IMG/VR virus record: IMGVR_UViG_3300020044_001295
Coordinates: 1-29,706 of that record
Reading direction: 5' to 3' (one strand)
Source: a virus
Lineage: Duplodnaviria; Caudoviricetes
Length of the DNA: 29,706 nt
The first letter of the stretch is position 1, and each line of letters begins with the position of its first letter. The notes under the pieces are model-generated. The model was given only the letters and a program-made list of their open reading frames with translations, made no database searches and was not told where the DNA came from. The translations under genes and the position numbers were made by a program. This document shows positions 242 to 29,612 of the stretch, in pieces.

Positions 242-489
242 TTCATGCTGCCGTCAGAGTTACGTTTAAACGAACGGTTCTTGGCAGCCGGCTTGGCTTT
301 GAGATTACCGATGACAGTAGTTCCCCCCTTACTAAGGGGCTTCTTGTGGTCAACGTCTTTGCCATCGCCTTTGTGCACTACGCCTTTTTTCTCAAGCATT
401 CTGCGGGCTTTGTTTCTCTGCGCTCGATCTTGCTTTGAAGCCTCAGTACCTTGGTAGTTCTCGTACTCTTGTTTGTAGTTGCGTGGCAT
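238..489 (-). CDS. Small HNH endonuclease
   Basis: DVDHKKPLSKGG...NL......NRS is a HNH beta-beta-alpha-metal motif. Confidence 0.85.
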   Translation of the reverse strand: MPRNYKQEYENYQGTEASKQDRAQRNKARRMLEKKGVVHKGDGKDVDHKKPLSKGGTTVIGNLKAKPAAKNRSFKRNSDGSMK

Positions 490-491
490 GA

Positions 492-941
492 TTAATCCTT
501 TAGTTTCTTGAAACGTTTGGCTCGGATCATGACGCAGGGTTCAATGTCCTGTGCATCATTGCGATCAATGCGTCCTGAGACCACCATGTCATCAGGTACA
601 AACGGATTTTCGCCCGTGCCAAACCTAGAATAGTACAGGCCGTCACGCAGTTTTACAATGAGAACAAACGGCAATCCCGTTGCTTCATGCATATGTTTTG
701 CTGACATCCACTTGTGTAGGCTGAGGGAATAACCACCATTGCGGTCGAGGTCATCCATTGGGTAATTGCGGGTCTTCATCTCGCAAAAACCAATCGCTTT
801 ATCTTGTCGTGTAAACACATAGTCCAAGTGGTACTTGATGGGTAGCTTGGTCATCTTGCCGTTCCATGCTTGCTCGCATTTGCCGGCTACTTCAGACTCG
901 CGTTCGAGGTCTGCGTTTGTTTCATACATAGGTCTGCTCAT
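492..941 (-). CDS. PD-(D/E)XK-family nuclease-like protein
   Basis: E...YHLDY...FCEMKTR catalytic-like spacing; RBS-like GAGAG upstream. Confidence 0.65.
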   Translation of the reverse strand: MSRPMYETNADLERESEVAGKCEQAWNGKMTKLPIKYHLDYVFTRQDKAIGFCEMKTRNYPMDDLDRNGGYSLSLHKWMSAKHMHEATGLPFVLIVKLRDGLYYSRFGTGENPFVPDDMVVSGRIDRNDAQDIEPCVMIRAKRFKKLKD

Positions 942-959
942 TTTGGTACTCTCTTTTAT

Positions 960-1163
960 TTAAAGTTCTAATTCAATTTGTTCAGGCGGTGTGTAGTTCT
1001 CAATAGGTATTCCTTTGTCAAGTTGTTCAATAATATCTTCCTGTGTGGCGACTCGTATTGTCATAATCCCTAATGACACATGCGCTATCGCTTGTCTGCG
1101 GTTGGATGCACGGATCAGTCTGACCTGATCTCCTACGCCTACCGTGTAAACACGTTGCTTCAT
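960..1163 (-). CDS. Hypothetical phage protein
   Basis: 67 aa; GGAGG RBS; ATG overlaps the end of the upstream gene. Confidence 0.75.
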   Translation of the reverse strand: MKQRVYTVGVGDQVRLIRASNRRQAIAHVSLGIMTIRVATQEDIIEQLDKGIPIENYTPPEQIELEL

Positions 1164-1414
1164 TTAGCCTCCAATTGTTTCTGCGGTAGCTTGTCAATGA
1201 ATGCCTGACCAAACTGAATGCTGTTGCAGTCTTCAATCCAAACATCGTCAAGGAATGCCTCCTCCATATTGCCGTGGCAGTACACGCGAAACCGCTTGCC
1301 GCCATAGGCTATGTCGTACATGGACTCGACACGCTCGACAGGCTTATTGCACACGGCACAGGTCGGAACGTTGTGTAGAACAAGCTCGTACTTGTCAGTG
1401 GTGGTAATGTTCAT
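1160..1414 (-). CDS. Hypothetical protein with CxxC and CH (possible Zn binding)
   Basis: CAVC...YCHG; GAGGAGG RBS; ATGA coupling. Confidence 0.7.
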   Translation of the reverse strand: MNITTTDKYELVLHNVPTCAVCNKPVERVESMYDIAYGGKRFRVYCHGNMEEAFLDDVWIEDCNSIQFGQAFIDKLPQKQLEAK

Positions 1415-1737
1415 AGCACCTCCTCAAGAATGCGCCACGATTCCAACTTGTTGCCGTTTAAACTAACCTCAACAGGGATGCCAATCATGTCTGCACATGA
1501 AGTTACTTTGGCTTGCTCCATCAGCTTTGCGACACGACGGCACATCTCGCCCCAATGTTTAGTCTGATCCTCGACCGTCCACTGACAGTGATGATCCGGA
1601 GTGCGTGTCCATGTGCCATCAAAGTCACCGACACCCCAACCTTTACCACCTAGCGTGACTGACATACCAAACATTGCACCGTCATAGCCGCCAAGACCAA
1701 CGTCAAACTTTTGTATTTTGCCTAGCTCTTTAGTCAT
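1411..1737 (-). CDS. Hypothetical phage protein
   Basis: 108 aa; ATGA-coupled at both ends. Confidence 0.75.
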   Translation of the reverse strand: MTKELGKIQKFDVGLGGYDGAMFGMSVTLGGKGWGVGDFDGTWTRTPDHHCQWTVEDQTKHWGEMCRRVAKLMEQAKVTSCADMIGIPVEVSLNGNKLESWRILEEVL

Positions 1738-1922
1738 GCTTGTCCCCTTGATAGGATAACTGTGGCAGTAAAAGGGGCTTTGGTGTTTTCAGCCAACTTT
1801 GCACACGCCTCACGCTCATGCTGTGCTACTAGCTTGGCAAAGGTTTCAAGGGTTTTAATCACATTTTGTGGTTGGATAATCCCTGCCTCATAAGCCATCT
1901 TAATGATTTCATCTTGCTTCAT
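1734..1922 (-). CDS. Hypothetical phage protein (EREACA family), paralog of 6972..7187
   Basis: Shares IIxMA, EREACA and RGQA* motifs with 6972..7187. Confidence 0.75.
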   Translation of the reverse strand: MKQDEIIKMAYEAGIIQPQNVIKTLETFAKLVAQHEREACAKLAENTKAPFTATVILSRGQA

Positions 1923-2149
1923 GGGTTATGCTCCTTGATCATTCTGTTTTTATGCCTGATCACTACAAGCAAGCGCAGAATATCCCGCATCTTTTTCTCT
2001 GCGACCGGACTCAGGTCATTGTCAAAGTCTAGGAGCAACCCGATAGCCCTGATGCCCTCCTGAGTAGCATCCTCAATTTCTTGGTGCTTAACACCTTTCT
2101 GCGCGTCCCTGTAACTCTTTGTGTCAGGGTACTTTTTTACTGTTTCCAT
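1919..2149 (-). CDS. Hypothetical protein, first gene of the leftward operon
   Basis: AAGGAGAG RBS before ATG at 2149; ATGA coupling to the next gene. Confidence 0.7.
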   Translation of the reverse strand: METVKKYPDTKSYRDAQKGVKHQEIEDATQEGIRAIGLLLDFDNDLSPVAEKKMRDILRLLVVIRHKNRMIKEHNP

Positions 2150-2630
2150 CTTCTCTCCTTTACGCCCTTGTCGGGCTTGTTAATATATTTCCACCCATAG
2201 ACCCCCCTACCCCATGAGAGTAGAGAGGGATGGTTTCCACCGCCTTTCGGCTTCTGCATGTCAACGTTAGTTGACCCCTGTGCTTGCAGATACGACCAGC
2301 ACCGTGGGTTATTCGGGAACTGCCCCCTAGCCTTACGGCATACCACGTAACCCTTTGCTTCCACGCAGGCAGATATCTACCCCTTAGTAACGTCTGGAGT
2401 ACGGTTGTCGTAGGAGGGGGTGAGACTAGAACTGCTCACATAAAGCAGTGTGTTTCAAAACATTACGTCCACAATGGCGCTAACCCATTGCACAGTCCTA
2501 GTCTCAAAAACAAAAAAGGCCACTTACAACTGCGCTCGGTAGGAACCTTAACTAATGACTCTTCGACTGATCATTAGGTAAGGCGGAACGCATGTATAAG
2601 TGGCCTCGATTATTGCTTCCTACGGCAACG
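2150..2630 (-). ncRNA. Candidate long structured leader/ncRNA, including a c4/P4-CI-like element at 2517-2630
   Basis: Many nested stems: 2517-2526/2597-2606 followed by a U-tract on minus; 2421-2434/2493-2506; GNRA hairpins at 2330-2339 and 2242-2251; a G-U-rich stem at 2202-2229 that pairs only on the minus strand. Lies directly downstream of a promoter. Confidence 0.6.
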
Positions 2631-2635
2631 ATTGA

Positions 2636-2666
2636 ATTATAAGCACAACTAGTTTGGTTGTGTCAA
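2636..2666 (-). promoter_or_regulatory. Leftward sigma70-type promoter TTGACA-N19-TATAAT with overlapping dyad CACAAC-N7-GTTGTG
   Basis: Perfect -35 (2661-2666) and -10 (2636-2641) hexamers on minus; inverted repeat at 2644-2649/2657-2662. Confidence 0.7.
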
Positions 2667-2800
2667 GCAGTACCAAAAATATTTTTACACGCTAGCCGGC
2701 TAAAGTGACAGAAAATAACTTAGCGATGGCTAACCCAAATTCTGCCAACCGGGTTTAGAAATTTATGCGTTTAAACATCAACAGCGTATCCCGGGATGTG

Positions 2801-2829
2801 TTGCAGCGGGATTTTTTTGCGTGTAAACT
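2801..2829 (+). promoter_or_regulatory. Rightward sigma70-type promoter TTGCAG-N17-TAAACT
   Basis: Near-consensus hexamers, 17-bp spacer, directly upstream of a hairpin plus terminator unit. Confidence 0.5.
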
Positions 2830-2835
2830 ACACAC

Positions 2836-2918
2836 ACCGACGACTGCAGTTGCCGGTACTCTCCTCTCTCCGTTGTGAGATTCAGCCCTTCCGAGTTCGC
2901 TTGGTGGGGCTTTTTTTT
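2836..2918 (+). ncRNA. Candidate ~83-nt small RNA with CU-rich anti-SD segment
   Basis: 5' hairpin 2836-2857, single-stranded ACTCTCCTCTCTCC, 3' intrinsic terminator; no credible ORF. Confidence 0.55.
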
Positions 2919-3319
2919 GGAGCAATCTCAGGGATCTTTTCTACAATGATCTCAGAGCGGGGGTTCTCAGGGTCTAGCCCCCAATAGCAATGACGCTCTT
3001 TAACCTGACGATCGTTCTCATATATAAGACCCTGCATCAGGTCTAGGATCAGGCTCTCGTCCAAGTCGGGTCGCCTTGACGCATAAAAAATATGCAGAGT
3101 AACTCGCAGATCACCCGTCATTAGGGTAGCAAGTGGCCGGCACTGTTGCCTAAAAACATCAGAGTAACTTAATGCTTTCTTAGACTTAATCAGCCGAGAC
3201 ATACCACCGTAGTGTACAACTCTACGCGAATTAGCCTTTGACGCAGGCTCTCCAAAAATAATTTGTGATAGCACTTGCAATTCGTCTGCGCAATCGCTAT
3301 TATTGAGGTTCGGATTCAT
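2882..3319 (-). CDS. rusA: RusA-like Holliday junction resolvase (start uncertain, 3319 or downstream)
   Basis: GEPASKANSRR...RRPDLDESLILDLMQGLIYENDRQV...NPRSEI matches the RusA pattern. The ORF-track start at 3355 overlaps the next gene and is unlikely. Confidence 0.8.
   Translation of the reverse strand: MNPNLNNSDCADELQVLSQIIFGEPASKANSRRVVHYGGMSRLIKSKKALSYSDVFRQQCRPLATLMTGDLRVTLHIFYASRRPDLDESLILDLMQGLIYENDRQVKERHCYWGLDPENPRSEIIVEKIPEIAPKKSPTKRTRKG
2884..2918 (+). terminator. Rho-independent terminator
   Basis: AGCCC-TT-CCGAG-TTCG-CTTGG-TG-GGGCT stem-loop followed by T8 (2911-2918); overlaps the 3' end of rusA on the opposite strand. Confidence 0.7.
3275..3303 (+). promoter_or_regulatory. 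Rightward promoter TTGCAA-N17-TATTAT for the recombination operon
   Basis: Near-consensus hexamers, 17-bp spacer, 35 bp upstream of ATG 3339 with GGAGAG RBS. Confidence 0.6.
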
Positions 3320-3338
3320 AACAACCTTTGGAGAGTAA

Positions 3339-4205
3339 ATGAAGATAACCAACAAACAGAATCTGCCCGCACCACTAGTGGCTTTGCTGTCACGTAACTA
3401 CTACAGCAAGGGGGCATCACAGTATAGCGTGACTGAGCTAATGTCGCCACCAAAGATTCGCAGACTACGCGAACAGTATGACGAGTCGATGGAGATTGAC
3501 GTAACCAAAATGATTGCTTCTCAGCTAGGCACGTTCATGCACGGCAAGCTTGAGGCCAAGGAAGTTGAGGGCTACCACAACGAGGAGCGCATCTTTACCG
3601 AGATCGATGGTGTGGTGATCAGCGGTGCGATCGACCTACAACAAGTGGTAGATGGCGGGGTCATCATCATTGACTATAAGTTTGTCAAGGCGTGGTCAGT
3701 CAAGCAGGGCAAGTCTGATTGGGAAACGCAGTTGAACATCTACAAGTGGCTTGTTGAGTCTGTCAAGCGTGTACCCGTCAAGGGCTTGCAGATCTGCGCC
3801 ATCATCAAGGATTACTCTGCCCACGACACATCAGAGGGCTACCCCGAAGCTGAGGCAATCATGATTGATGTCCCAATGTGGGACGCAGTCAAGACCGAAG
3901 CCTATGTCCGTCAGCGCCTAGATATGCACCGCCATGCCCGCATGGCTCACGACTTTGGAGAAGAGCTTCAGCCCTGCTCTGATGAGGAACGTTGGATGAC
4001 CGAGACGGTCTACGCCACGAAGAAGGATGGACGCAAGTCTGCGATCCGTTTATTTAAAACCATAGAGGAAGCCACAGAGTTGGCAGAAAAGGAAAAAGGC
4101 TATGTCGAAACCCGCAAAGGCGAACCCAAGCGTTGCACAGGAGATTTCTGTGGAGTCAGCAAGTGGTGCAGTCAATATCAAGGAGAACTCAATGTCACCG
4201 CATGA
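3339..4205 (+). CDS. PD-(D/E)XK (RecB/Cas4-like) exonuclease
   Basis: GTFMH...E...SGAIDL...IIDYK...QLNIY motifs; C-terminal Cys cluster (C...RC...FC....WC); adjacent to an annealing protein. Confidence 0.85.
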   Translation: MKITNKQNLPAPLVALLSRNYYSKGASQYSVTELMSPPKIRRLREQYDESMEIDVTKMIASQLGTFMHGKLEAKEVEGYHNEERIFTEIDGVVISGAIDLQQVVDGGVIIIDYKFVKAWSVKQGKSDWETQLNIYKWLVESVKRVPVKGLQICAIIKDYSAHDTSEGYPEAEAIMIDVPMWDAVKTEAYVRQRLDMHRHARMAHDFGEELQPCSDEERWMTETVYATKKDGRKSAIRLFKTIEEATELAEKEKGYVETRKGEPKRCTGDFCGVSKWCSQYQGELNVTA

Positions 4206-4896
4206 TTTATTGAAGATCAACGTCAACGACCACACCGAGAAGAAGAACGGCTTAACGTACCTCTCATGGGCATGGGCATGGCAAGAAGCTTTGAAGGCAG
4301 ATCAGACTGCTACGTTTGATGTGCAGACCTTTGACGGCAAGCCTTACATGGATGTCAACGGCACAGGCATGGTATGGGTCACCGTTACCTTGTTTGGTCA
4401 GCCCCGCACTTGTATGTTGCCCGTCATGGACTACAAGAACAAACCCATCCTTAATCCTGATGCGTTTGCCGTTAATACCGCCATCATGCGATGCATGACC
4501 AAAGCCCTTGCCTTGCATGGCCTCGGGATATACATCTATGCCGGAGATGATTTACCGCAGTCAGACGCTCCAACCACTATGGGTGAGTTGACCAAACAGG
4601 AAGACGCACCTCATTACGAGGAGATTATTGCCAAGGTTTGGGAGAAAAAGCTTGGCAAGACTGCACCCAAGGCAGACCAAACCTTGGACAACTCTGACGC
4701 AAGTCGCAAATTGTTTGCAGACGGGATGATTGAGTACACATCCCACTGCACCACGGTAGCTGGTTTAAACAGCTATTGGAAAAGCAATCAGCTTCAGCTT
4801 GACTCGCTGAAGGTGACGCACCCCGACCTCTACCAAGCGGTCTTAACCAAGTTCCAAGAACTTAAAAAATCCTTTTCTAACGGAGAAACCAAATGA
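4192..4896 (+). CDS. Sak3-like (DUF1071) single-strand annealing protein
   Basis: NVNDHTEKKNGLTYLSWAWAW...LPVMDYKNK...VNTAIMRCMTKALALHGLGIYIYAGDDLP; AGGAG RBS before ATG 4192. Confidence 0.85.
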   Translation: MSPHDLLKINVNDHTEKKNGLTYLSWAWAWQEALKADQTATFDVQTFDGKPYMDVNGTGMVWVTVTLFGQPRTCMLPVMDYKNKPILNPDAFAVNTAIMRCMTKALALHGLGIYIYAGDDLPQSDAPTTMGELTKQEDAPHYEEIIAKVWEKKLGKTAPKADQTLDNSDASRKLFADGMIEYTSHCTTVAGLNSYWKSNQLQLDSLKVTHPDLYQAVLTKFQELKKSFSNGETK

Positions 4897-5195
4897 GTAA
4901 TGAGTACCAAGCCAAGCCGGATTCCGGCTCCATGTTCGCAACCCAAAGCAAGAAGACTCCCAAGTCTCCCGACTACTTTGGCACGTTCCATATCAACCTT
5001 AAAGACCTGACCAACATCAAGACCGAAGACGGCCTGACTGTGATCAAGATATCCGGATGGAAGAAGGTCGCCAAGAACGGCAAAACTTTTCTGTCCTTGG
5101 CCGTGGATCGTTTTGTTCCACAACAACAAGGCGGTACACGCCAAGAAAATCAAGCGCAGGAGTTTCCTGCTGACGATTCGGACATTCCCTTTTAA
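4893..5195 (+). CDS. Small ssDNA-binding-like protein
   Basis: PDYFG...SGW...GKTFLSL core and acidic C-terminal tail DDSDIPF typical of SSBs; follows exonuclease and SSAP genes. Confidence 0.7.
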   Translation: MSNEYQAKPDSGSMFATQSKKTPKSPDYFGTFHINLKDLTNIKTEDGLTVIKISGWKKVAKNGKTFLSLAVDRFVPQQQGGTRQENQAQEFPADDSDIPF

Positions 5196-5204
5196 GGAGA
5201 GACC

Positions 5205-5555
5205 ATGACTAAATCAAAACAAATCCTTGCTTACAAACAAGCCAACCCCACACACAAAGCAAAAGATATTGCCAAGGCTTGTGGTGTAGCAAATGCTTAT
5301 GTTTATCAAGTGCTTCACAAAGCCAAGAACAAGACGGCAAAGAAGTCTGTTGTCCCTACAGATGGGCAAAAGGTTTTACGTGAAGAGATGGATCGTTTAC
5401 ACGCAGAGATTGCCAACTTGCAAATTATGGATGAAGTAAGCGAACGTCTTCTTGCTGATTACGAGTCTGAGATTGAGCAGTTGAATAGCGACATCATTGG
5501 CTACCGTGCGGTAATCTCCTATTTACAAGGACAACTTGATGGCGCTACAGTTTGA
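5205..5555 (+). CDS. HTH protein with C-terminal coiled coil
   Basis: AKDIAKACGVANAYVYQVL is a HTH-like segment; heptad-rich tail; AAGGAG RBS. Confidence 0.65.
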   Translation: MTKSKQILAYKQANPTHKAKDIAKACGVANAYVYQVLHKAKNKTAKKSVVPTDGQKVLREEMDRLHAEIANLQIMDEVSERLLADYESEIEQLNSDIIGYRAVISYLQGQLDGATV

Positions 5556-5931
5556 AGCCCGTAAAGTAGCGTTGAAGCAAGACCGTACAGGTTTTATTTT
5601 GACGCTTGCCATGCACCCCGACGATGTTCCGGAGGAGATCCTCCGTGACTTTGTCGGGACACGTTACGCCTGTGCGGTGGTTCGCATCAATGATGATGAA
5701 TCACCGATGGAGTACGACAACCGAGTCAAGAAGGCAGGGATGCTATGTCGGGATCAAGACTTTCAATTCTTTCTAGGGGTTGACAGTGAAGATGCTGCGG
5801 CTGACAAGCTGTGTAAACACTGCGGTATCGAATCAAGAACAGAACTCAATGGGAATGCCAGCGCCAAAACAATCTTTGACAGGTTGGTTTCATCCTATTC
5901 AGATACGAAAGTAATCGATGACCCTTTCTAA
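5539..5931 (+). CDS. Hypothetical phage protein
   Basis: 130-aa ORF within the operon, AAGGA RBS. Confidence 0.75.
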   Translation: MALQFEARKVALKQDRTGFILTLAMHPDDVPEEILRDFVGTRYACAVVRINDDESPMEYDNRVKKAGMLCRDQDFQFFLGVDSEDAAADKLCKHCGIESRTELNGNASAKTIFDRLVSSYSDTKVIDDPF

Positions 5932-6229
5932 GAAACTTAAACCCTTCATGACTTACATGGATGACCATGACTACGTCAAGCTTAAACGCTTTGCCAAGTC
6001 CAAGAAGGTCACTATGGCTAGGATTCTGCGTGAGGGATTGGTCATGCGGATGGCTGAGGACAACCCTTACATGGCCGGCTTCAATGACGGCCTTGACAAG
6101 GCGGTAAGCTTGATGACCGCAAATAATGCGGCTCAGATGCGCTTTCCGTCGGGTCAGTCATTCGCAGAGATCATGACCGACGAGATCATGCAACACCGCA
6201 TCCGCGAGGTTCCAAATGAAACTGCTTAA
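5918..6229 (+). CDS. Putative ribbon-helix-helix DNA-binding protein
   Basis: KPFMTYMDDHDYVKLKRFAKSKKVTMARILREGL fits the RHH pattern. Confidence 0.6.
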   Translation: MTLSKKLKPFMTYMDDHDYVKLKRFAKSKKVTMARILREGLVMRMAEDNPYMAGFNDGLDKAVSLMTANNAAQMRFPSGQSFAEIMTDEIMQHRIREVPNETA

Positions 6230-6446
6230 CGGTCAGCGTAATCAATGCCAAAGCTGTAAGGAGTACTTCAACAGTGTCGGAGCATTTGAGAAGCACCGCA
6301 CGGGCAAGCATGGTGTTAACCGCAGATGCAGAACTCCCGAAGAGCTTCTGGCTTTGGGATGCAGTTTAAACAAGGATGGGTTTTGGATTACCAAGAAACG
6401 TCCCGAAGATTCATACACAACAAGGAGTCAAGACAATGATGACTGA
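6216..6446 (+). CDS. Phage zinc-finger protein (CxxC...FxxHR type)
   Basis: CQSCKEYFNSVGAFEKHRTG...RRC. Confidence 0.7.
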   Translation: MKLLNGQRNQCQSCKEYFNSVGAFEKHRTGKHGVNRRCRTPEELLALGCSLNKDGFWITKKRPEDSYTTRSQDNDD

Positions 6447-6612
6447 AAAGCTACGCAAGAAAGCCCGTTGCTTATACAACAACGATATGGTTCCCGAACA
6501 CATTAACCGCCACAACCAACGCAAGTGGGTACGTGCAGTTCTGCGCTTGGGTGAGCATTGGTTGATTGCCAAGCCAATAGGGAGACTTGATGCAAACCAA
6601 AGCCATCCTTGA
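6436..6612 (+). CDS. Hypothetical phage protein
   Basis: AAGGAG RBS before ATG 6436; basic 58-aa protein. Confidence 0.7.
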   Translation: MMTEKLRKKARCLYNNDMVPEHINRHNQRKWVRAVLRLGEHWLIAKPIGRLDANQSHP

Positions 6613-6796
6613 GTTTATATACCCCGAAGATGAGGACAGGCTTCTGTTCGCCATCAAGGGGCCGGAGATGTACAAGGCACTGACAAATATCAAGATGGCA
6701 GTGACAGGAAGCTTTAACACCAAGGCTGATTTAAACGCAGTCCTTGACCGAGTACAAGATTTAACAGATCAAATATTTGAGGAGCTAGGAGAATGA
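6590..6796 (+). CDS. Hypothetical phage protein
   Basis: GGGAG RBS; overlaps neighbours in the operon. Confidence 0.7.
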   Translation: MQTKAILEFIYPEDEDRLLFAIKGPEMYKALTNIKMAVTGSFNTKADLNAVLDRVQDLTDQIFEELGE

Positions 6797-6975
6797 CAAA
6801 CGAGGAGAGGGAGATAGATTTAAACATTGCAGACCTAGAGGCAGAGAACCGTAGGCTCAAGAAGGTAGAACAGGCGGCTCAGGCCGTAGTCAAATCGTTT
6901 AGCAATAGCATTGACTACAACACTTGGGATGCAGCGCTTGATGCGCTTGAGGCTACGCTGAAGGAAAAGCCATGA
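6793..6975 (+). CDS. Hypothetical coiled-coil protein
   Basis: AGGAG RBS; ATGA coupling at both ends. Confidence 0.7.
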   Translation: MTNEEREIDLNIADLEAENRRLKKVEQAAQAVVKSFSNSIDYNTWDAALDALEATLKEKP

Positions 6976-7187
6976 ACAGAGAAGACATTATTCGCATGGC
7001 GCGGGAGCAAGGACTCCCAGAAACAGATACTGAGGGGGTGTTCATTGTAAACACCGATGATCTTGGCCGAATGCTTTCTGCCGAGCGTGAGGCGTGTGCA
7101 CAGATGCTAGAAGCGGCTTCAAAAACAGGAAAAATAATAAGTTGTACAAGTGCGGCAAAAGCCATCCGAGCAAGGGGACAAGCATGA
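6972..7187 (+). CDS. Hypothetical phage protein (EREACA family)
   Basis: Paralog of 1734..1922; ATGA coupling. Confidence 0.75.
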   Translation: MNREDIIRMAREQGLPETDTEGVFIVNTDDLGRMLSAEREACAQMLEAASKTGKIISCTSAAKAIRARGQA

Positions 7188-8792: not shown

Positions 8793-8802
8793 AAGGAAAA
8801 GA

Positions 8803-19574: not shown

Positions 19575-19585
19575 ATCAGCAAACC

Positions 19586-21403: not shown

Positions 21404-21414
21404 TTATGTGTCCT

Positions 21415-24114
21415 TTAAATCAGGCCAAGATTTTTCAACAAAGCATTCACGGTGGTTGCGCCTTGAGCAGCTTTTGTCAAATCACTAGGCGAAATACCTT
21501 GGTAGCTCTGAGCCGCCAATGGCAAGCCTTGCAACAAAGATTGCTGGTATTGAACCATCTTATAAGGATTTGCACGGGCTTCTTCAAACTGCGCTTTGTC
21601 TGCGGCGATGCCTTCAGACTCAATGCCACGTTGCTGTTGACCAGCGGCAAGCTGTTGAGATAGGTTAGCCAAGCCTGTGGAGGCTTGTGTAGCACCAAGC
21701 TGACCTTGTGCTTGAGCGCCTTGCAAACCTGTTTGTAAACCTTGCAAACCAAACGTAGCTCCAAACTGTGATTCTTGAGCTTTACGGGCTTGATCTGCGT
21801 TGAATTGAGCCATCGCTTTGTCATACGCTGTGCTGTAGCCTTGACCTGTAATATTGGCTTGTGTGTTAGCAAGATTTCGCTGTGTCTCTGCGTCAAGGAT
21901 AGCCTGACGGCCACCACCAAACGCGCCAGCTTGCGTCATCTTCCCTGCGTTCTGCTGTTGCGTAATCTGTGATTGACGGCGAGCCTCTTCTAACTGCGGC
22001 TCTAATGCACCCTTTAAATACGGGTTCATGTAATTCTGCATTTGTTCAGTATCAAACGGGGATGTCGTAGGTGTGTAAGACAAGCCTTGAGCTTTGGTAG
22101 CAATGTCACCCGCAGTACCTGCCGCAGTGCCAATGCTTGTAGGGGTAGTTAAAGTTCCAGCAGTATTAAAAGCTTGCGTCTGCAAGGGTGACTCACCAGA
22201 GGTCAGCGGCCCCATGTAAGCTTGATACGGCATGTTAGCCAAAGCTTGGCCCTGACCAAGCATGTTGGTTACATATGGGCCTGCCCAATTAGATAGGTTG
22301 GATTCAACGCCTGAAATGCCTAGACTAGCGTTTTTGTTGGCGGTGGTTAAGCCGCCTGTTTCGAACTTCTTGACTGTGCCACCGGATGCGTAGGCTTGAG
22401 CCAAACCACCGGGCATGAACTTATCGGGGTTGATCTTTTTGCCTTGTTTTTTGTTGCCTGTACGTGCCATACGAATTTTGTCCATCATTTGATAAAGCTT
22501 TTTAGCACCAGCATCTGAGTTGCCGTTACCCATATGAGACACAACGTCAGCAGGAATAACAAACTCTCCGTGGCTTAGTGCTGCGGGCTGGTTTTGACCA
22601 ATCTGTGCGGGGAGTTCATCTGCCATGCCGTCTGTTTCTCCTTGAAGATAACGGCCTTTAGCCATAGCAATTTCACCGCCTTGCGCAAACGCTTTGGCAG
22701 AGTTATAAGCCGCTTCAACATCAGCCAACTTTGTGCCTGTAGCCGCCGCTACCTCAGCAGGGGTGTAGCCCTTGGCATCCATAACTTCAGCAATAGAACG
22801 CAGATTGCCCGATGCTAATGCGGCTTGAGTAGTGGGGCTTGCAAAGAAGTCATAGATTTCTTTAGTTTGATCTCCACCACCGGCATCTGATTTGGGGTTT
22901 GCCACATACTTTGTTTCTGCCGCATAACGGTTAGCCGCATCAATATCACGTTGCTCTACGCCCGAGGTAGCCATTGCATTTGCAATTTGCTCAGGGGTAT
23001 GTTTGGCAGCTTGGTAGTCCAAGATGTTCTTGTACAACTTATCCAAACCCATGTCATTGACGACGGCGTATTCTTTGGCGCGAGATGAGTTTAAACCATA
23101 CATTCCGCGAGCAATATCTTCATCGTTTAAACGAACAGCATCCATTGCGTCTTGAATTTGCTTGGCGGTGGCGTATGGATTATCACGCAGCCATTTTTCA
23201 ATAATTTGACTCTGCTCCTGCATTCCGCCACCATGTGTTAGCGCGTATTTAGTAGCATCAGAAAAATTTGAAGTGCGCAGGGCTTCTTGTAAGTCTTCTT
23301 GGCTTACATCAAATTGTTTCATTGCGGAATCAATCTGCGCCCTGCTGGCTCGTGGGTTGTCAAGAATCCACTGATTAATATTGTTTAGATATTGGGCAGG
23401 AGTTAAGCCCGAAGCCATCGCCAGCTGGTAGCCTTTGGAGCCTAGGTTAACTTTGTCGTTGCCGCCGCCACCGGTAAGCGTGTCGTTGCCCTTGCCGCCT
23501 GTGACCGTAGTAGTTTTTCCATAGCTATCGACCCAATTTTTTATGTCTTCAGAATTGTTTTTTATAAGCGCCGCCCTGTCACTTGCACTTAAATTAGCCA
23601 AAGGGTCGTTAGGATTAAACCCAGCCATTTTGCTAGACGTGCCAGACAGATTAGCCCAAGGATCTTGTCCGGGGGCTAAGGCATAGGTTACATCACCACC
23701 ATAGTCAATACCACCTGCGCCCGGACGGTAGCCCTGTGCACGGGTAGGAGGCGCGGCAATCATTGAACGAGATGCAGATAGCGTAGGAATAACACCTTGG
23801 TAGCCCGTCTTTTTGTCTGCGTTTGAACCACCGCCATAGACACTAGCCAAAGCGCCCGCACCTGCCAGCCATGATTTATTGTCAAGTGCAAATTGCTTTA
23901 GATCAGACAAACCAAAACGAGAAGGTAACGTACCGCCTGCGTCTGTGTAGGCTTTGTCCCAGCTATCAATGCCGCTACGTACACCTTCGCCTAAAAAAGC
24001 ACCATCACCGCCAGCTTGAGACAGCGTTTCTCCGCCCGGATTAAATACATTTTCGTCAATTTGGGTGGCAACATCGCCACCAAAATAGCTACCATCGGCA
24101 TAATCAACAGACAT
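21415..24114 (-). CDS. Putative internal virion/pilot protein
   Basis: 899 aa, G/A/Q-rich; DGMADELPA...LSHGEFVIPADVVS domain; YMNPY...AGAFGGGRQA segment seen in podophage injection proteins. Confidence 0.65.
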   Translation of the reverse strand: MSVDYADGSYFGGDVATQIDENVFNPGGETLSQAGGDGAFLGEGVRSGIDSWDKAYTDAGGTLPSRFGLSDLKQFALDNKSWLAGAGALASVYGGGSNADKKTGYQGVIPTLSASRSMIAAPPTRAQGYRPGAGGIDYGGDVTYALAPGQDPWANLSGTSSKMAGFNPNDPLANLSASDRAALIKNNSEDIKNWVDSYGKTTTVTGGKGNDTLTGGGGNDKVNLGSKGYQLAMASGLTPAQYLNNINQWILDNPRASRAQIDSAMKQFDVSQEDLQEALRTSNFSDATKYALTHGGGMQEQSQIIEKWLRDNPYATAKQIQDAMDAVRLNDEDIARGMYGLNSSRAKEYAVVNDMGLDKLYKNILDYQAAKHTPEQIANAMATSGVEQRDIDAANRYAAETKYVANPKSDAGGGDQTKEIYDFFASPTTQAALASGNLRSIAEVMDAKGYTPAEVAAATGTKLADVEAAYNSAKAFAQGGEIAMAKGRYLQGETDGMADELPAQIGQNQPAALSHGEFVIPADVVSHMGNGNSDAGAKKLYQMMDKIRMARTGNKKQGKKINPDKFMPGGLAQAYASGGTVKKFETGGLTTANKNASLGISGVESNLSNWAGPYVTNMLGQGQALANMPYQAYMGPLTSGESPLQTQAFNTAGTLTTPTSIGTAAGTAGDIATKAQGLSYTPTTSPFDTEQMQNYMNPYLKGALEPQLEEARRQSQITQQQNAGKMTQAGAFGGGRQAILDAETQRNLANTQANITGQGYSTAYDKAMAQFNADQARKAQESQFGATFGLQGLQTGLQGAQAQGQLGATQASTGLANLSQQLAAGQQQRGIESEGIAADKAQFEEARANPYKMVQYQQSLLQGLPLAAQSYQGISPSDLTKAAQGATTVNALLKNLGLI

Positions 24115-24116
24115 AA

Positions 24117-25778
24117 TTAACCCCTTAACATTCTTGCAAGAGCATCTATATCAGCAGATGCTAGGTTTTTAGGCGCTCCAAGCGACCTTAGTTTATAAGC
24201 CGTATCACCACCAAACAACTCTTCCATCAATTTTATATTGGCATACGGATCTTGGCTAGGCATTGGTGCGTTTAAACCAAGATCAATTAATGACTGTTCT
24301 GTAGTTTTTGTGCCCGGTGTGGTCGTTTTGGTTGGTACAACCGTCTTTGTGCCGCCGGGAACCGTAACAGTTTGCAAGATGTCGTTGATGTTTAAATCAG
24401 GAAACAACTTGTCAATTTTGACTTCGTCATCTTTGATATCAGAAACAATATCTTTGGTTCTAAGATTTGAAATATATGGCGTGGGGCGATCCCCGGTAAT
24501 AACCAGCTCTTCAGGAGTGTCTGCGGGGATCGCCTTAGAAGTATTTGTGACGGGAACCATAAAGTCGCCAAGACCTGTAGGTCTATCGCCCGTCACAGTT
24601 ACAGTGCCCTCGTCGGCAGTTTTTTCTCCTGCGTTTTTAAGTAAAGTTTCAAGATCCGCAGAGCCTTGAATTTCACTTATGTTAGCTTCAAGGAACTTAG
24701 CCAAATCACCCTGCGACATGCCTTTAATATCTGCGGCTGGGTACATTTCGCTGATTAAATCAACAATCCCTTGAGTTGTTCCATCATCAGAAGCTGGCTG
24801 GTTTAACACAGCGTCTTCAATTCTGTTTAAACGTGCAGCCTCTCGATTGGCATCACGTTCCGCCTGTTCGCTTGCAGTTAGGCCACTAAAGTCTGTTCCT
24901 TTAGCTAAACCTGTAAGGGTGTTAAAGATTTTTTGATTATCGCCGCTACCCAAAGCTTGAACAGTGTTTAAACCTTTGAGGACATCGTTGGTTGTAAAAC
25001 CTGTATCACCAATATTAAAGTTTGTTGTTACGTAAGGAGAGGCAAGATTTGCCGCTCCCGCTAACGTAGGATTTTGTGCAAAGTTGTATGCTTTGGCTGC
25101 ATCGGCAACTTTAAACCCTGTGTTGCCAAGCTCCATGCCACCTGCACTAGCAGCACCGCCAAGCAATGCACCTTTAAGAATATCTTGATCCGTAAACGCT
25201 GCGTTTGCGCCACCCAATAAAGCGCCGCCAGCGCCAGCAGCCTGCGCGGCGGTAAGGCTTGGGAATAACGTACTACCCAAAAATGCTGCGCCACCACCCA
25301 TTGTGGCGGCAGTCATAATCATTGGGCCAAAGTCATCCCAAAAAGAAGATTCTTTTTCTACGTGAATTAATTTACCGGTGGTATCGTAATAATAATTCTT
25401 ACCGCCTTCAGAACGTTGAAATCCACCCAGCTTGTTGGCGGGGTCGATTTCTTCAAAAATTTGATTGTCTCCCTCAAAACCAATCACTTTAGGTTGGTTT
25501 TCCCATGCAGTCCAACCATTTAAATATTGAACAGGTGTATCGTAATACTGCGTACCGCCTTCAGTTTCGTATTCATTACGAACGGTTGCGCCTTTTTCGG
25601 CGTACAAAGCTTTAAGCTGATCCAACAACGGAGGTGTGCTTGTTGCTTGAGTGTTTACCGCAGTAGTCTGCGTATTGTTTTGAGGTGCACCTCTTGCTTG
25701 CTCATCACGCATCGCAGCCGCAGCTTCCCAACTACCCGTTAGTTGGTACAGTTCTTCATCGCTCATTGGTGCTGCCAT
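24117..25778 (-). CDS. Putative virion protein
   Basis: 553 aa with a central Gly/Ala hydrophobic glycine-zipper-like region; tightly packed in the late operon. Confidence 0.55.
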   Translation of the reverse strand: MAAPMSDEELYQLTGSWEAAAAMRDEQARGAPQNNTQTTAVNTQATSTPPLLDQLKALYAEKGATVRNEYETEGGTQYYDTPVQYLNGWTAWENQPKVIGFEGDNQIFEEIDPANKLGGFQRSEGGKNYYYDTTGKLIHVEKESSFWDDFGPMIMTAATMGGGAAFLGSTLFPSLTAAQAAGAGGALLGGANAAFTDQDILKGALLGGAASAGGMELGNTGFKVADAAKAYNFAQNPTLAGAANLASPYVTTNFNIGDTGFTTNDVLKGLNTVQALGSGDNQKIFNTLTGLAKGTDFSGLTASEQAERDANREAARLNRIEDAVLNQPASDDGTTQGIVDLISEMYPAADIKGMSQGDLAKFLEANISEIQGSADLETLLKNAGEKTADEGTVTVTGDRPTGLGDFMVPVTNTSKAIPADTPEELVITGDRPTPYISNLRTKDIVSDIKDDEVKIDKLFPDLNINDILQTVTVPGGTKTVVPTKTTTPGTKTTEQSLIDLGLNAPMPSQDPYANIKLMEELFGGDTAYKLRSLGAPKNLASADIDALARMLRG

Positions 25779-25780
25779 GT

Positions 25781-26029
25781 TTAAACCTTGATCTTTAGTC
25801 GGTTGTCGGCGGTGTCTCGATACACTTCGCCCACACGCAGATTAGCCAAGTCAGCCTGTGTTGGCAAGGTATCAATGTTAATATTTAACTGCGCAATATT
25901 GATTGGCTGAATAGCGTTTAAACGTTGAAAGAACAAGTTCAACACGTTTAGCATCTGACCCATATAAGCTGCGTCGTACTCTAACGGTGGGGAAGGTAAA
26001 CGTGGTGGAGCATCACTGAACAAACTCAT
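25781..26029 (-). CDS. Small tail-associated hypothetical protein
   Basis: 82 aa; ATGA-coupled to the upstream tail gene; PPRLPSPPLEYD motif. Confidence 0.65.
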   Translation of the reverse strand: MSLFSDAPPRLPSPPLEYDAAYMGQMLNVLNLFFQRLNAIQPINIAQLNINIDTLPTQADLANLRVGEVYRDTADNRLKIKV

Positions 26030-27945
26030 GAGTTGCCCCTTCTGCCGTCTTGTTTAATGTCAATACGAGGTGCACCCAACTGCCACGTAGTGCCAACTTG
26101 GGTAGATTCCATCTGGAATATCAACTGCCTGCCACGGATGCGAATGTACACCTGACCTGTAAATTCCTCTACGGGAGCGGTAGCAATACGTTGAATAGAA
26201 GCGTTGCTTGTACCTGCGGTTGAGCGTGGATCATTTGCCCCTGAACCTGAGTTTTGATACGGGATCAGAGTCATTGTGCACTGAGGCGTAGCGCCGGTAG
26301 AGCCACGGAATGTCAAGTCAGGCAGGACACGCCAAATAAAACCAAAGTTATGGCCGTCGTCAATGTCAAACTCAGAGGAGCTAATCAAGGCGTTGATAGC
26401 AGTAGTTGTGGCTGTAGAGTTGTCGTCTACGCCAAGTTCATGGTTGACCAAGTTGTTGATGTACGTCGCAGCTAAGGGATAGTTGAGCAAACCTGAATCA
26501 AGCCACGCAGATCGTTCCATCGTGCCGTAGTACCAGATGTCTTCAAGGTAGTTATAAACAACGTACTTGTCCACGGTATTACTACCGGCAGAACAGTAGA
26601 ACCACCAAGCCTCATTAAAGCCTTCGTTGGTTCCTGAAAACACTTGGGATGCCTGCGTCAAGTTAATGTCGCTAAAAATGTACTGACGAAGATCGCATCG
26701 CAGAGTCTGCACACGTCCATCGTATTTGTAGAACTTGTCTACACCCATCCAATAGACCACGCCGGAAGCCAAACAAACTGCGTTCGGGCCGATGATTGAG
26801 ACGTTGTCGCCAAGTAACTGAGAAGCCCAAACTACAGGCGGCCCTACGTACTGAAGCGAGTACACAGCAGAATCTGTAAACACCACAATCTCTTGACGGG
26901 CTTGAATAGCGGCAACAATCTCAGAACCGTGAGATAACTGCAAGCTACCGGCTTGGTTTGTAGGCGCAGGTGTCCAGATAAGGACGCTTTCTTGATCCGA
27001 CCAGCGAATCAACATAGGATTTAGGGTGGATGAACTGTAGTCATCACAGCCAAAACAGAATACAAAACGGCTTGCGTCAGACACAAACACAGACAGAACA
27101 ACCGAAGGTACATCTGCGTCTGCGCCCATAATGCTAGACACCAAAACACCACGGGTGTTTAAACCATTGGTTTGATCCCAATAGTACAACCCGCCGCCAC
27201 GGGGAGCAAACACCAAGTCTTCGCCAAAGTTAGATTGGCTCCATAGGCGGATGCTAGACGTAGAAGTTCCGCCTGTACCCCACAAGCCAGCACCCCAAGC
27301 GCCTGCGCCCCAGCCTGTAAGTGGAACTGCGTACTCAGGGCCAACGTTAATTTGATACGCAGCTACGACGGAAGCGCCACCACCGGCGGCGGCAGCGTCC
27401 GTAGCGTTAGCCGTAGCAGATGCTGTAAACGTGTAGGAGTTGGCGTTTATAACGGTAATTTGATATTCAGCGTTTAAAACGGTAGCCGTGATGTTTCCAC
27501 CAAGTCCCGTAGCACCGCTAAAAGTTACAAAGTCGCCCGTCACACCACCATGCGCAGTGTCGGTAACTGTAATGATGGCAGAGCCATTTGTAGCTACAAA
27601 CGGGTTATTGTTGATTGTGCTGCTTGCCCGAATAGGTGTGATGTCGTTGTACGAACCACCTAATGCAATGTAAAACTTTAAGTTAGTGCCTACACCAATA
27701 AGGTTAGCTCCGGTCAGGGTGACCCAATTCCACAATGAGCGGCATACACCCTCGTAAAACTCGTCAGAGATACGAGTCCATCCGCCAATCTTTTCAGGAG
27801 TTCCTGCACGGAAACGAACCTTTTCAGACTCGTACCACCCACCTGCCACGTTTGTGCCGGAATTTACAGACCCCATAGCCTCGGATGCGTACCGTGTGTT
27901 TTCGCGGTTAACCCCCGGACGAAATAGAATCTTTTTTAACGGCAT
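26026..27945 (-). CDS. Tail/DNA-stabilization protein (P22 gp10-like nozzle) with inserted beta-rich domain
   Basis: MPLKKILFRPGVNRE...KVRFRAGTPEKIGGW N-terminus; IRWSDQE, YWMG..KFYKYDG, EAWWFY beta-propeller-type motifs; ITVTDTAHG..TGDFVTFSG insert. Confidence 0.7.
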   Translation of the reverse strand: MPLKKILFRPGVNRENTRYASEAMGSVNSGTNVAGGWYESEKVRFRAGTPEKIGGWTRISDEFYEGVCRSLWNWVTLTGANLIGVGTNLKFYIALGGSYNDITPIRASSTINNNPFVATNGSAIITVTDTAHGGVTGDFVTFSGATGLGGNITATVLNAEYQITVINANSYTFTASATANATDAAAAGGGASVVAAYQINVGPEYAVPLTGWGAGAWGAGLWGTGGTSTSSIRLWSQSNFGEDLVFAPRGGGLYYWDQTNGLNTRGVLVSSIMGADADVPSVVLSVFVSDASRFVFCFGCDDYSSSTLNPMLIRWSDQESVLIWTPAPTNQAGSLQLSHGSEIVAAIQARQEIVVFTDSAVYSLQYVGPPVVWASQLLGDNVSIIGPNAVCLASGVVYWMGVDKFYKYDGRVQTLRCDLRQYIFSDINLTQASQVFSGTNEGFNEAWWFYCSAGSNTVDKYVVYNYLEDIWYYGTMERSAWLDSGLLNYPLAATYINNLVNHELGVDDNSTATTTAINALISSSEFDIDDGHNFGFIWRVLPDLTFRGSTGATPQCTMTLIPYQNSGSGANDPRSTAGTSNASIQRIATAPVEEFTGQVYIRIRGRQLIFQMESTQVGTTWQLGAPRIDIKQDGRRGNS

Positions 27946-27954
27946 TGGCGACCT

Positions 27955-28392
27955 TTATTTGCTGGCAACGCCTTTGGTCTTCTCAAAAGAACGCATACCG
28001 GCAATGCCCAAGATGCCTGATAATATCACCCAAAGTTGGTCTGCGTCTAGTACCGGCGGGGGATCCATTCCAACAGGAACCCAGCCCATAGCTTGCAAGT
28101 ATTTCCATGCCCACTGAAATAGCGGATACAGCAAAAACTGATAAGCCATAGCCGCTACACCGATCCAACCGATGGCAGGTCGCCAGCCGCTGACAAACAC
28201 GCTACTAGAGGCAGCTTCAATCTTGTTGACCTCAATCTGCGCTAGGTCTGTGGCTTGGTCAATGCGCTTCTCTTCAAGATCAAGCTTACGCTGCTCAATC
28301 TCCATCTCCATCTTTTCTTTGTCAGTGGTAATCAGGTCGCCTGCAACCTTGCCCACGGCTTCAATGATTGATCCAACGGCTAGTAAGCTCAT
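27955..28392 (-). CDS. Holin, 3TM gene-transfer-release (GTA-type) family
   Basis: QIEVNKIEA.S.SVFVSGWRPAIGW...LGIAGMRSFEK; adjacent to the endolysin. Confidence 0.9.
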   Translation of the reverse strand: MSLLAVGSIIEAVGKVAGDLITTDKEKMEMEIEQRKLDLEEKRIDQATDLAQIEVNKIEAASSSVFVSGWRPAIGWIGVAAMAYQFLLYPLFQWAWKYLQAMGWVPVGMDPPPVLDADQLWVILSGILGIAGMRSFEKTKGVASK

Positions 28393-28904
28393 TTCAAACC
28401 TTTCAATGTGCGGTTCAGCCAGCCCTTGAGGAACTTAACCTGCACGGGGTTCTTATTGCATATCTCAACGTAGCGGGCAATCTTGGCCAAAGCGTAAGAC
28501 TCTTTGAACCGCTGACCGTCTGTGATCTGGTTGAGCTTCTCAATGGTCTTTGCCCCGATACCGCCGTCAGGGGTAGCGCCTACCACGAGTTGCGCCAGCT
28601 TCACCGCCATGCCCATGCCTGCGTTTACACCAAAGTTAAAGATGGTGTTAGCCACGTCTTGATTAGAAATCTCGTTACCGCGCATCTTGTCCCAGAACTC
28701 AACACGGTAAAACTCACGCACCATAGGCGTAAGGGAGCCACCGAATTCTTTCTTATCCACAAGCGCCCAGCCATTCCACTGTGGGTTCTTGTTACGAGCG
28801 ATCCCAGCATAGGTCATGCCCCCTGTGTCGCCGGGTACTTCATGGAGGACGTAGCCGCCCTCGTCCCTAATCATCTGCTCAAAAGCAGGTTCAAACTGAG
28901 CCAT
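28389..28904 (-). CDS. Endolysin, glycoside hydrolase family 108 with peptidoglycan-binding C-terminus
   Basis: EGGY...DTGGMTYAGI...FNFGVNAG...DGGIGAKT...FLKGWLNR. Confidence 0.92.
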   Translation of the reverse strand: MAQFEPAFEQMIRDEGGYVLHEVPGDTGGMTYAGIARNKNPQWNGWALVDKKEFGGSLTPMVREFYRVEFWDKMRGNEISNQDVANTIFNFGVNAGMGMAVKLAQLVVGATPDGGIGAKTIEKLNQITDGQRFKESYALAKIARYVEICNKNPVQVKFLKGWLNRTLKGLK

Positions 28905-29001
28905 TGTTATCCCTTATCCAAGCTGAAATAAAGCCGTACAAAAATGACAGCGTGGCAACAAGCAAGACCCCAAGCGCAACGCCGATAAATGTGTCAGCCA
29001 T
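28891..29001 (-). CDS. 36-aa single-TM membrane peptide (below the ORF-track cutoff)
   Basis: MADTFIGVALGVLLVATLSFLYGFISAWIRDNNGSV*; AAGGAG RBS; TAATG overlap with the upstream stop; fills the gap before the endolysin. Confidence 0.7.
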   Translation of the reverse strand: MADTFIGVALGVLLVATLSFLYGFISAWIRDNNGSV

Positions 29002-29612
29002 TACTGTTTACTCCTTGAAAGCATGGTTGCCGCAATATCCATCATGGTTCTTGCCACCTGAATGTCGGCAGGTTCATTATCCCATCCCACAGTAATTTGA
29101 CCTACAAACCTGCTTGGGTCAGGTGGCACACTGATTCGGCAAGTGTAGGTAACCCCTTTGGCGATGTACCACAAACCCATCTCAGACTGCGCTGACTTGT
29201 ATTCCCCGCAAGGTATCTCGCTAGCCATGAGCCGAACCACATCTGTGTTGTTGGCTGCGTTCTGTGTAAACAGACCCACATCAAGCCCATCGTTGGTTTT
29301 ATCTCTGCCTTCTTTGGTGTAAGCGCGGTAAAGCACTCTGGTTCCAAACATGGGATTCACTTTGAACACGGCAACAATAGTAGCGTTGGTGGTCTTGAAC
29401 AAGTGAGCCGCAGCGTCTTCCACCCTATCCTCAACAATGCTTGGCATCTTCTTGGACTCTTTGTACGCGCCCATCAGCAGTTCTTGGTTCTGCCAAACAA
29501 AATAACCAGCAAAGGCAAACACCGCCATAAGTATTAGCGCAAACAGTTTAAACGGGCTATCCACATAGGACAGCACCTTGCTTAGTACATCTGCTGGTTT
29601 CTCGTCACTCAT
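29001..29612 (-). CDS. Membrane-anchored hypothetical protein
   Basis: One N-terminal TM segment (LFALILMAVFAFAGYFVW) followed by a ~160-aa alpha/beta domain. Confidence 0.75.
   Translation of the reverse strand: MSDEKPADVLSKVLSYVDSPFKLFALILMAVFAFAGYFVWQNQELLMGAYKESKKMPSIVEDRVEDAAAHLFKTTNATIVAVFKVNPMFGTRVLYRAYTKEGRDKTNDGLDVGLFTQNAANNTDVVRLMASEIPCGEYKSAQSEMGLWYIAKGVTYTCRISVPPDPSRFVGQITVGWDNEPADIQVARTMMDIAATMLSRSKQ

Follow-up and report, generated by a model that had tools for sequence, protein, structure and literature searches.

An over-represented 8-base palindrome in a freshwater tailed phage is selected as DNA and is a likely binding site of a phage-encoded SprT-like zinc ribbon

The viral contig IMGVR_UViG_3300020044_001295 (29,706 nucleotides; hereafter the window, meaning the whole stretch analysed) belongs to a tailed phage and carries 24 copies of the 8-base palindrome GTTTAAAC. 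We propose, with a probability of roughly 70%, that this word, within the consensus GTTTANAC, is selected as DNA and is likely to be the binding site of a phage-encoded zinc ribbon of ~45 residues, which would repress its own gene and coat the phage genome. Ribbon and word are very probably a strongly selected reader-site pair of an undescribed kind, and a literature search, in which subscription journals were mostly outside coverage, found no published account of a pairing between the word and SprT or its ribbon.

All 24 positions given in the original prediction proved exact, with no additional copies, and its expectation of ~0.5 copies agrees with an order-2 Markov model (0.52 copies, a 46-fold excess; order 3 gives 2.3). 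The codon-preserving shuffle that it had proposed left the excess standing: three kinds of synonymous-codon shuffle (genome-wide, per gene and conditioned on the next base; 300 runs each) gave means of 2.6–3.1 copies and a maximum of 7, an 8–9-fold excess. Almost all copies had been placed in genes, and 22 of the 24 indeed lie within codons, 13 as G/R/S-L-N with TTA and nine as x-F-K-x with TTT AAA, leaving those at 2769 and 25779 outside (Table 1). The suggestion that the word forces unusual codons was only partly right, since TTA is a common leucine codon here (122/742) and TTT the major phenylalanine codon. Enrichment of many one-letter variants had also been suggested; two of the 12 variant pairs are clearly enriched, CTTTAAAC/GTTTAAAG (13 copies vs. 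shuffle means of 1.9–2.6) and GTGTAAAC/GTTTACAC (12 vs. 2.3–3.5), and the other ten are not clearly so; ATTTAAAC is marginal (4 vs. 1.4–1.9). The excess of GTTTAAAC opposes the general trend of the window, where several short words are avoided (CCAGG 0 of ~50, CCAGT 0 of ~45, CGCG and GGCC at a third to half).

Selection on the DNA rather than on the peptides is apparent from codon choice. Every permissive in-gene position carries GTTTAAAC (22/22, where codon usage predicts 1.26), and the two variant pairs occupy 10 of 14 (GTGTAAAC/GTTTACAC) and 13 of 34 (CTTTAAAC/GTTTAAAG) of theirs. Where word-rich relatives encode the same amino acids, the word is kept in 173 of 184 comparisons, as opposed to 3 of 11 in word-poor relatives, 30–32% for other 8-mers in the same frames, and 37% and 62% for L-N and F-K outside sites. 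At 8505 and 9303 homologues keep the word though flanking residues change; at 5395 they alternate between GTGTAAAC/GTTTACAC (9) and GTTTAAAC (18), and at 8265 13 of 15 have GTTTAAAC where the window has a variant, both switches occurring via a residue change. Permissive peptides are themselves about twice as frequent in genomes with the SprT-ribbon gene introduced below (2.0–3.2 per 1000 residues) as in those lacking it (0.7–1.5). Five window sites (1456, 17939, 19705, 23089 and 23125) were not kept in the few homologues aligned; the last two may be recent gains or poorly aligned, being kept in none of four homologues each. Excess, saturation and conservation in related phages thus bear out the earlier proposal of a selected DNA signal.

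The word travels with a gene. All 60 close relatives of the window's exonuclease are word-rich, two distant ones have no copies, and a separate metagenome contig (97.4% identical to window positions 253–1163, possibly from the same sample) carries the copy at 264, which disposes of an assembly or cloning artefact absent from relatives. Contigs from four studies also align over window positions 1–9700 in all 30 bins. Among loci related through the tail gene only 6 of 80 reach 0.3 copies per kb. Across 22 records of 47–65 kb, the 11 with a gene for a SprT-like protein ending in a zinc ribbon (the reader gene, for its putative role) have 23–54 copies and the 11 without it 0–2; a family profile was used here, as the Pfam SprT search of whole records was insensitive (8/44). 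Searching from the gene, GTTTAAAC was the top 8-base palindrome in 81 of 81 further reader loci. Searching from the word (a scan for paired copies, with 50 of 78 longer loci taken and 46 records examined), the reader gene was present in 13 of 17 word-enriched records and in 0 of 29 others, at an enrichment cut-off chosen after the data were seen.

The association extends to 12 cultivated phages chosen across 164 matches. Perfect copies number 17 in R5C, 8 in Alexa, 7 in Mica, 5 in ECO1230-10 and 4 in Persinger, and GTGTAAAC numbers 22 in Zeta1847, 25 in Tbone and 39 in UNTPL, whereas Eden, Armstrong, CN1 and Epa43 have neither. All eight phages whose ribbon has the K-Q-x-T-R motif have GTTTAAAC or GTGTAAAC, and none of the four with an altered or missing ribbon does, although their protease motif HExxH is intact. 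The cultivated phages compared infect Actinobacteria and alpha-, beta- and gamma-proteobacteria, and three loci of 34% GC whose ribbon has diverged but retains both arginines are also word-rich. The phage DNA-binding protein implied by the original suggestion of a docking site for a DNA-organising protein is the most likely explanation, the word tracking the ribbon across unrelated phages. Other words are over-represented in some altered-ribbon phages, GCGATCGC in Eden (W03) and Armstrong (W12; 11 and 15 copies vs. 2.3 expected) and CCCAGGG in Epa43 (W11; 69 vs. 22); we claim no link between these candidate replacements and the ribbon because neither occurs upstream of the SprT-like gene.

The closest relative with the gene, G046 (exonuclease 98% identical; 75–88% nucleotide identity in the overlap), encodes it at 1757–2335, 7.2 kb to the left of the point that corresponds to window position 1. 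The phage of the window presumably has the gene too, likely ~7 kb beyond the left edge, in the unassembled half of its genome. A trio of AAA (MoxR/CobS-like), metallopeptidase-like and VWA genes follows the reader gene in 11 of 11 reader-bearing genomes (35030–38233 in G006, and homologues); four reader-less genomes carry a different AAA trio.

The protease is dispensable for the word: its catalytic motif was lost in two lineages, and ribbon-only loci stay word-rich. In the window's family HExxH is lost in 7 of the 11 reader-bearing near-complete relatives and intact in G046. The HExxH-less forms make up one clade (support 98, in a tree from a quick method, not a finished careful one), with 1.55 sites per kb (n = 31) compared to 1.45 for intact forms (n = 58; p = 0.15). 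In a second, unrelated family, the reader is the first gene of an early operon with amidoligase and glutamine-amidotransferase genes, and its 79 loci comprise 35 long HExxH-less forms, 39 stand-alone ribbons of ~55 residues with their own ribosome-binding site at the same locus, and five unclassified; site density is 3.1 per kb with the stand-alone ribbon and 3.2 with long HExxH-less forms. R10 and R171 never vary among 93 diverse proteins, and Q154, T156, R157, C163, C166, W176 and C189 hardly do, unlike the HExxH residues.

Structure prediction for the G046 protein gave a predicted local distance difference test score (pLDDT) of 96.7. In a first model only the N-terminal domain, which has the minigluzincin fold, aligns with Wss1 (Z 6.5, root-mean-square deviation (rmsd) 3.4, 104 residues aligned) and SPRTN 6mdx (Z 6.3, rmsd 3.1, 97 aligned), Z values that are middling, and PF10263 matches the protein below its cut-off (E 5e-4). 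This SprT-like plus ribbon protein gave no helix-turn-helix (HTH) match, the stand-alone ribbon matched no Pfam family, Foldseek returned nothing at E 0.001 or better, and the ESM Atlas gave only generic zinc-ribbon look-alikes; a whole-model structural search found no match to the ribbon region, which does not demonstrate a new fold. Modelling predicts that the full protein pairs as a homodimer (score 0.70; best of three controls 0.00); of proteins with solved structures, 20 of 30 homodimers and 1 of 23 monomers attained the mark used. Contacts agree between runs at 67% or more with pLDDT of at least 84. The predicted interface (8–15, 37–47, 56–75 and 143–149) lies in the SprT-like domain, takes in a number of the best-conserved positions and leaves most of the ribbon free. 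The model supports, without demonstrating it, the idea that the dead protease domain serves as a scaffold; a likeness to a solved complex is possible.

In one lineage the promoter site and the dispersed sites shifted together. Three second-family loci, L543–L545 (25 kb), contain 70 copies of GTTTAGAC (0.7 expected) and 22 of GTTTAAAC, compared to 13 and 339 in 13 sister loci (184 kb). Of 23 sites aligned between L543 and its sister L533, 12 were converted in place, nine kept and two lost, and the core ribbon of L543 differs from that of sister L540 by one residue (R to K). A scan of 80 loci for paired GTTTAGAC found the reader in the one enriched locus and in none of 79 others. GTTTANAC describes the principal words in use, with the CTTTAAAC pair of the window as an additional, weaker form, and hardly any copies of the double variant GTGTACAC occur. 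This pattern fits either a dimer able to tolerate imperfection in one half-site or a monomer whose site is asymmetric. Reader-bearing locus L623 has mixed words (GTTTAGAC 5, GTTTACAC 5, GTTTAAAC 1) and may represent a relaxed-specificity form.

Sites recur at the promoter of the reader gene. Seven of the eight positive cultivated phages have a copy 9–80 bp upstream of the gene, overlapping or adjoining sigma-70-like boxes read by eye, and R5C has one a gene further upstream. A site is present in 44 of 46 distinct upstream regions of the second family, at a position that slides between spacer, either box and leader; the two exceptions belong to L543–L545, where the promoter carries GTTTAGAC.

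The remaining sites are dispersed more evenly than at random in several genomes. Against a null coefficient of variation (CV) of ~0.94, gaps have a CV of 0.50 in Tbone (p = 0.0002), 0.53 in UNTPL (p = 0.0001), 0.61 in R5C (p = 0.03) and 0.67 in the window (p = 0.04), and L451, L433 and L480 are likewise more even. Control words of equal count were equally even in 0 of 388 cases in Tbone, 0 of 327 in UNTPL and 1.6% in the window. Ten of the 11 genomes of the window's family fall under the null mean, three of them at p below 0.05. Intergenic sites make up 4–13 of the 23–54 in relatives, and the asymmetric variant occurs in both orientations (Tbone, Zeta1847 and UNTPL).

From these comparisons we infer that the ribbon binds GTTTANAC directly and represses its own gene. 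The protein, whose ribbon would normally be the tail of a SprT-like protein, would be made early, bind GTTTANAC, limit its own synthesis through its own promoter and occupy the phage DNA about once per kilobase. Evenly spaced bound protein could then limit the reach of host DNA-tracking or DNA-binding defence proteins on phage DNA, and the ancestral protease would add the option of cutting such proteins. This last function, in which the coat would obstruct or fend off host proteins that cover foreign DNA or move along it, is the weakest step and is offered tentatively. An undescribed self-marking system in phages of several bacterial phyla, in which a ribbon reader, ancestrally on a SprT dimer scaffold, co-evolves with an evenly written GTTTANAC and forms a protective 'chromatin' that blocks host proteins or, with an active protease, destroys them, is likewise a conjecture that may well be wrong.

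The same reader could instead act at dispersed sites as a set of stoperator-like transcription roadblocks that damp early and middle transcription or, in temperate members, silence the prophage, which we consider unlikely. Sites in the reader's own promoter and integrases in several carriers fit this idea, as does density, which peaks in early and replication regions. Sites of the second family extend over the ~9 kb that follow the gene, and hardly any lie on the terminase and portal side; in the window's family, permissive positions are used at 0.74–0.89 between −2 and +28 kb relative to the reader gene but at 0.21–0.57 near capsid and tail-fibre genes, reaching 0.21 around +40 kb. The high-usage range, however, includes the late ejection-protein gene, which is saturated in the window (7/7) and at 0.8–0.9 in relatives, and the sites are palindromic or in both orientations, lie in genes and occur also in phages with no integrase found. 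Still less likely, the dispersed sites would be only decoys that titrate an autorepressor, such that early-operon output reports genome copy number. The autoregulatory placement and the first position of the reader in the second family's early operon agree with titration, but titration depends on site number and not on position, whereas several lineages have their sites at more regular intervals than expected at random, and a promoter mutation would be cheaper than recoding proteins. Late-gene saturation, orientation independence and even spacing together favor a local, position-dependent role over gene-specific control or titration.

Two explanations dispense with a phage reader. A word like HIP1, arising from methyltransferase-linked mutation or repair bias or mirroring a host-wide palindrome, would match in length, palindromy, in-gene placement and density class (PMC5861425), but is very improbable. 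No N6/N4 or Dam-type methyltransferase, the co-occurrence suggested in the original prediction, was found in 23 records (PF01555 and PF02086 0/23), nor any methyltransferase among 71 open reading frames (ORFs) of the complete record G007, C5 methyltransferases not being searched separately; one-letter variants are enriched and conserved rather than depleted, and the hosts span several phyla. A host signature was likewise not supported, as reader-less relatives with tail and lysis genes 88–99% identical in amino acids have 0–2 copies. Hardly to be credited is a Chi-like word read by a host protein with the SprT-ribbon gene as fellow traveller: phages can accumulate a host octamer, as Chi in lambdoid phages (PMC12315714), and the window phage has Sak and an exonuclease, yet in unrelated phages and hosts it is the ribbon that the word follows, rather than the protease or the neighbouring genes, and a palindrome permits no strand polarity.

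Several observations weigh against the preferred reading of a ribbon-bound, autorepressed and coated genome. There is no SprT match within the window, and no near-identical contig extending it leftwards was found, leaving the reader gene outside the window. The reader was not found in four of the 17 word-enriched records, all fragments 17–31% complete. Relatives are not independent samples, and the homologue comparisons share ancestry and are not independent trials. Four other genes (AAA, VWA, Sak and primase-helicase) share the 11/0 pattern within the window's family, and because of this confounding the comparison was extended outside it. In that family the reader gene mostly lies within an operon, and only 9 of 48 loci have a perfect or GTG site in the 150 bp preceding it, so that autoregulation is not evident. 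The shift to GTTTAGAC is a single event to which avoidance of TTAA (49 observed, 81 expected) could contribute or which it could drive, and the same K is present in three phages that use GTTTAAAC, making the residue not predictive elsewhere. Spacing is uneven in L406 (CV 1.51) and L477 (1.01) and not significant in Zeta1847, L411, L459, Mica and Alexa, and the stand-alone ribbon lacks the predicted dimer interface.

The window, a whole contig estimated as 49% complete by CheckV, is half of a ~62-kb freshwater tailed phage genome; complete relatives measure 61–65 kb, and sequencing runs that contain the phage come, when their habitat is stated, mostly from freshwater, lake or estuary metagenomes. 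It encodes primase-helicase, RusA, exonuclease, Sak, a 3300-residue polyvalent protein, and tail, holin and endolysin genes; the tail gene has distant matches in cultivated phages (best 36%), and a prophage search in GTDB genomes gave a single weak match. In G007 a primase-helicase is present, with no DNA polymerase match among the ORFs scanned. The giant polyvalent protein (9672–19574) had been suggested to carry ParB-like units and act as reader; Pfam shows no ParB, and instead two ART-PolyVal (ADP-ribosyltransferase), GP88 and LPD38 domains, and its best match among 11 complete relatives is only 44% identical. Two of its copies, 13220 and 13946, lie within a duplicated protein stretch, and that at 11250 is kept in 20 of 21 homologues. 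Genes 25781–27945 are closest to reader-less G025 (88–90%), where both corresponding sites are absent.

The intergenic site at 2769 and its neighbour at 2822 precede a leftward TTGACA...TATAAT promoter by ~100 and ~155 bp, and two or three sites occupy this place in 10 of 11 relatives. On the minus strand at 2636–2666, perfect TTGACA and TATAAT boxes 19 bp apart enclose an inverted repeat in the spacer and are preceded by AAAAATATTTTT, an arrangement conserved in several relatives that resembles a regulated promoter or origin region. A hairpin-forming element directly upstream of early-gene ribosome-binding sites (L232–L311, G001–G010) is possibly an RNA processing site. CGCAGA/TCTGCG is also enriched in the window (67 vs. 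~15) with no clear strand bias, 1.7–3-fold in 11 of 11 reader-bearing relatives and 1–1.4-fold in reader-less ones; it may be a by-product of CCAG, CTGCAG and CGCG avoidance or a second signal. Avoidance of CCAGT is confined to a sub-lineage (window, L015, L081 and L083), which suggests a particular host restriction system.

Table 1 Copies of the word, its enriched variants and related features in the window
Feature	Position	Gene or context	Conservation or remark
Primase-helicase start (minus strand), truncated by contig end	1..241		
GTTTAAAC	264..271	HNH-like gene 238-489, S-F-K-R	kept in 24/35 homologues from word-rich loci, 0/4 word-poor
GTTTAAAC	1456..1463	gene 1411-1737, S-L-N	
GTTTAAAC, sole intergenic perfect copy	2769..2776	intergenic	paired with GTGTAAAC at 2822-2829
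GTTTAAAC	4763..4770	Sak annealing gene, G-L-N	kept in 25/30 homologues
GTTTAAAC	6364..6371	gene 6216-6446, S-L-N	
GTTTAAAC	8505..8512	gene 8449-8631, K-F-K-H	kept in 20/20 homologues under five peptides
GTTTAAAC	9303..9310	gene 9199-9408, A-F-K-R	kept in 21/21 homologues under three peptides
Seven GTTTAAAC: 11250, 13220, 13946, 14882, 15252, 17655, 17939	11250..17946	polyvalent (ejection-type) gene	
GTTTAAAC	19705..19712	605-aa virion gene, L-F-K-R	kept in 0/5 homologues
Two GTTTAAAC: 23089, 23125	23089..23132	899-aa gene	kept in 0/4 homologues each
Three GTTTAAAC: 24270, 24825, 24966	24270..24973	553-aa gene	
GTTTAAAC	25779..25786	spans stop of gene 25781-26029, abuts start of gene 24117-25778	
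GTTTAAAC	25916..25923	gene 25781-26029, R-L-N	reader-less G025 (88% identical protein) has GTATAAAC
GTTTAAAC	27157..27164	639-aa tail/stabilisation gene, G-L-N	absent in reader-less G025 (90% identical protein)
GTTTAAAC	29546..29553	gene 29001-29612, P-F-K-L	shared with reader-less G025, its only copy
12 GTGTAAAC/GTTTACAC: 809, 1144, 2822, 5395, 5811, 9207, 12137, 18063, 20525, 21394, 28623, 29264	809..29271		
13 CTTTAAAC/GTTTAAAG: 8147, 8265, 9610, 10427, 12210, 14130, 14525, 15741, 16170, 17543, 20780, 21266, 25109	8147..25116		

Dimers that bind short palindromes dispersed over part of a genome and act at a distance are known in MatP/matS, SlmA/SBS and Noc/NBS, which differ from the putative system described here in being bacterial and chromosomal, of unrelated folds and not phage-encoded. 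As described in passages of PMC9283540, the stoperators of Cluster A mycobacteriophages (L5, TipsytheTRex) are 20 or more sites in the phage's own genome for a phage-encoded repressor, some in promoters; they are 13-bp, asymmetric, oriented with transcription and in short intergenic spaces, and are bound by a monomeric protein with HTH and Stoperator domains. The dispersed sites for a putative phage-encoded reader and the promoter sites are shared features, whereas the sites here are 8-bp palindromes or near-palindromes, mostly within codons and in both orientations, and the candidate reader is a zinc ribbon. HIP1 (GCGATCGC) of cyanobacteria is an over-represented 8-bp palindrome selected inside ORFs, with non-random spacing and a proposed role in DNA organisation (PMC5861425 and PMC4390886). 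Our word resembles it in being an 8-bp palindrome conserved in ORFs and over-represented more than 15-fold against the order-2 Markov model, but HIP1 is chromosomal, methyltransferase-linked and has no named reader, while the phage word has a candidate reader and no methyltransferase found. Chi, enriched in lambdoid phages without Rec modules, is also a dispersed octamer selected inside phage genes (PMC12315714), but is asymmetric and read by host RecBCD, whereas the palindrome follows a phage gene across host phyla. In Cluster AZ Arthrobacter phages, a SprT-like protease with HEXXH and a small C-terminal predicted DNA-binding domain was predicted to act in crosslink repair, and repeats are mentioned as 'data not shown' (passages of 10.1101/2025.05.26.655371). 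Those passages name no sequence motif, and here HExxH and even the whole domain are lost while the sites stay; the N-terminal fold resembles that of the DNA-dependent metalloproteases SPRTN and Wss1, but catalysis is not needed.

If the proposed pairing is true, the ribbon would be a new DNA-binding domain with a known site, and the common phage annotation 'SprT-like protease' (164 records among cultivated phages and, at E 1e-10, 2551 protein clusters) would gain a function. GTTTAAAC would be the first iterated palindrome with an identified self-encoded reader, making the long-open question posed by HIP1-type words, namely what purpose selected palindromes at even intervals serve, testable in cultivated phages, and a 55-residue sequence-specific binder with natural specificity variants could serve as a tool. 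For the phages themselves, selection on a DNA word fixes every synonymous opportunity and doubles the frequency of permissive peptides.

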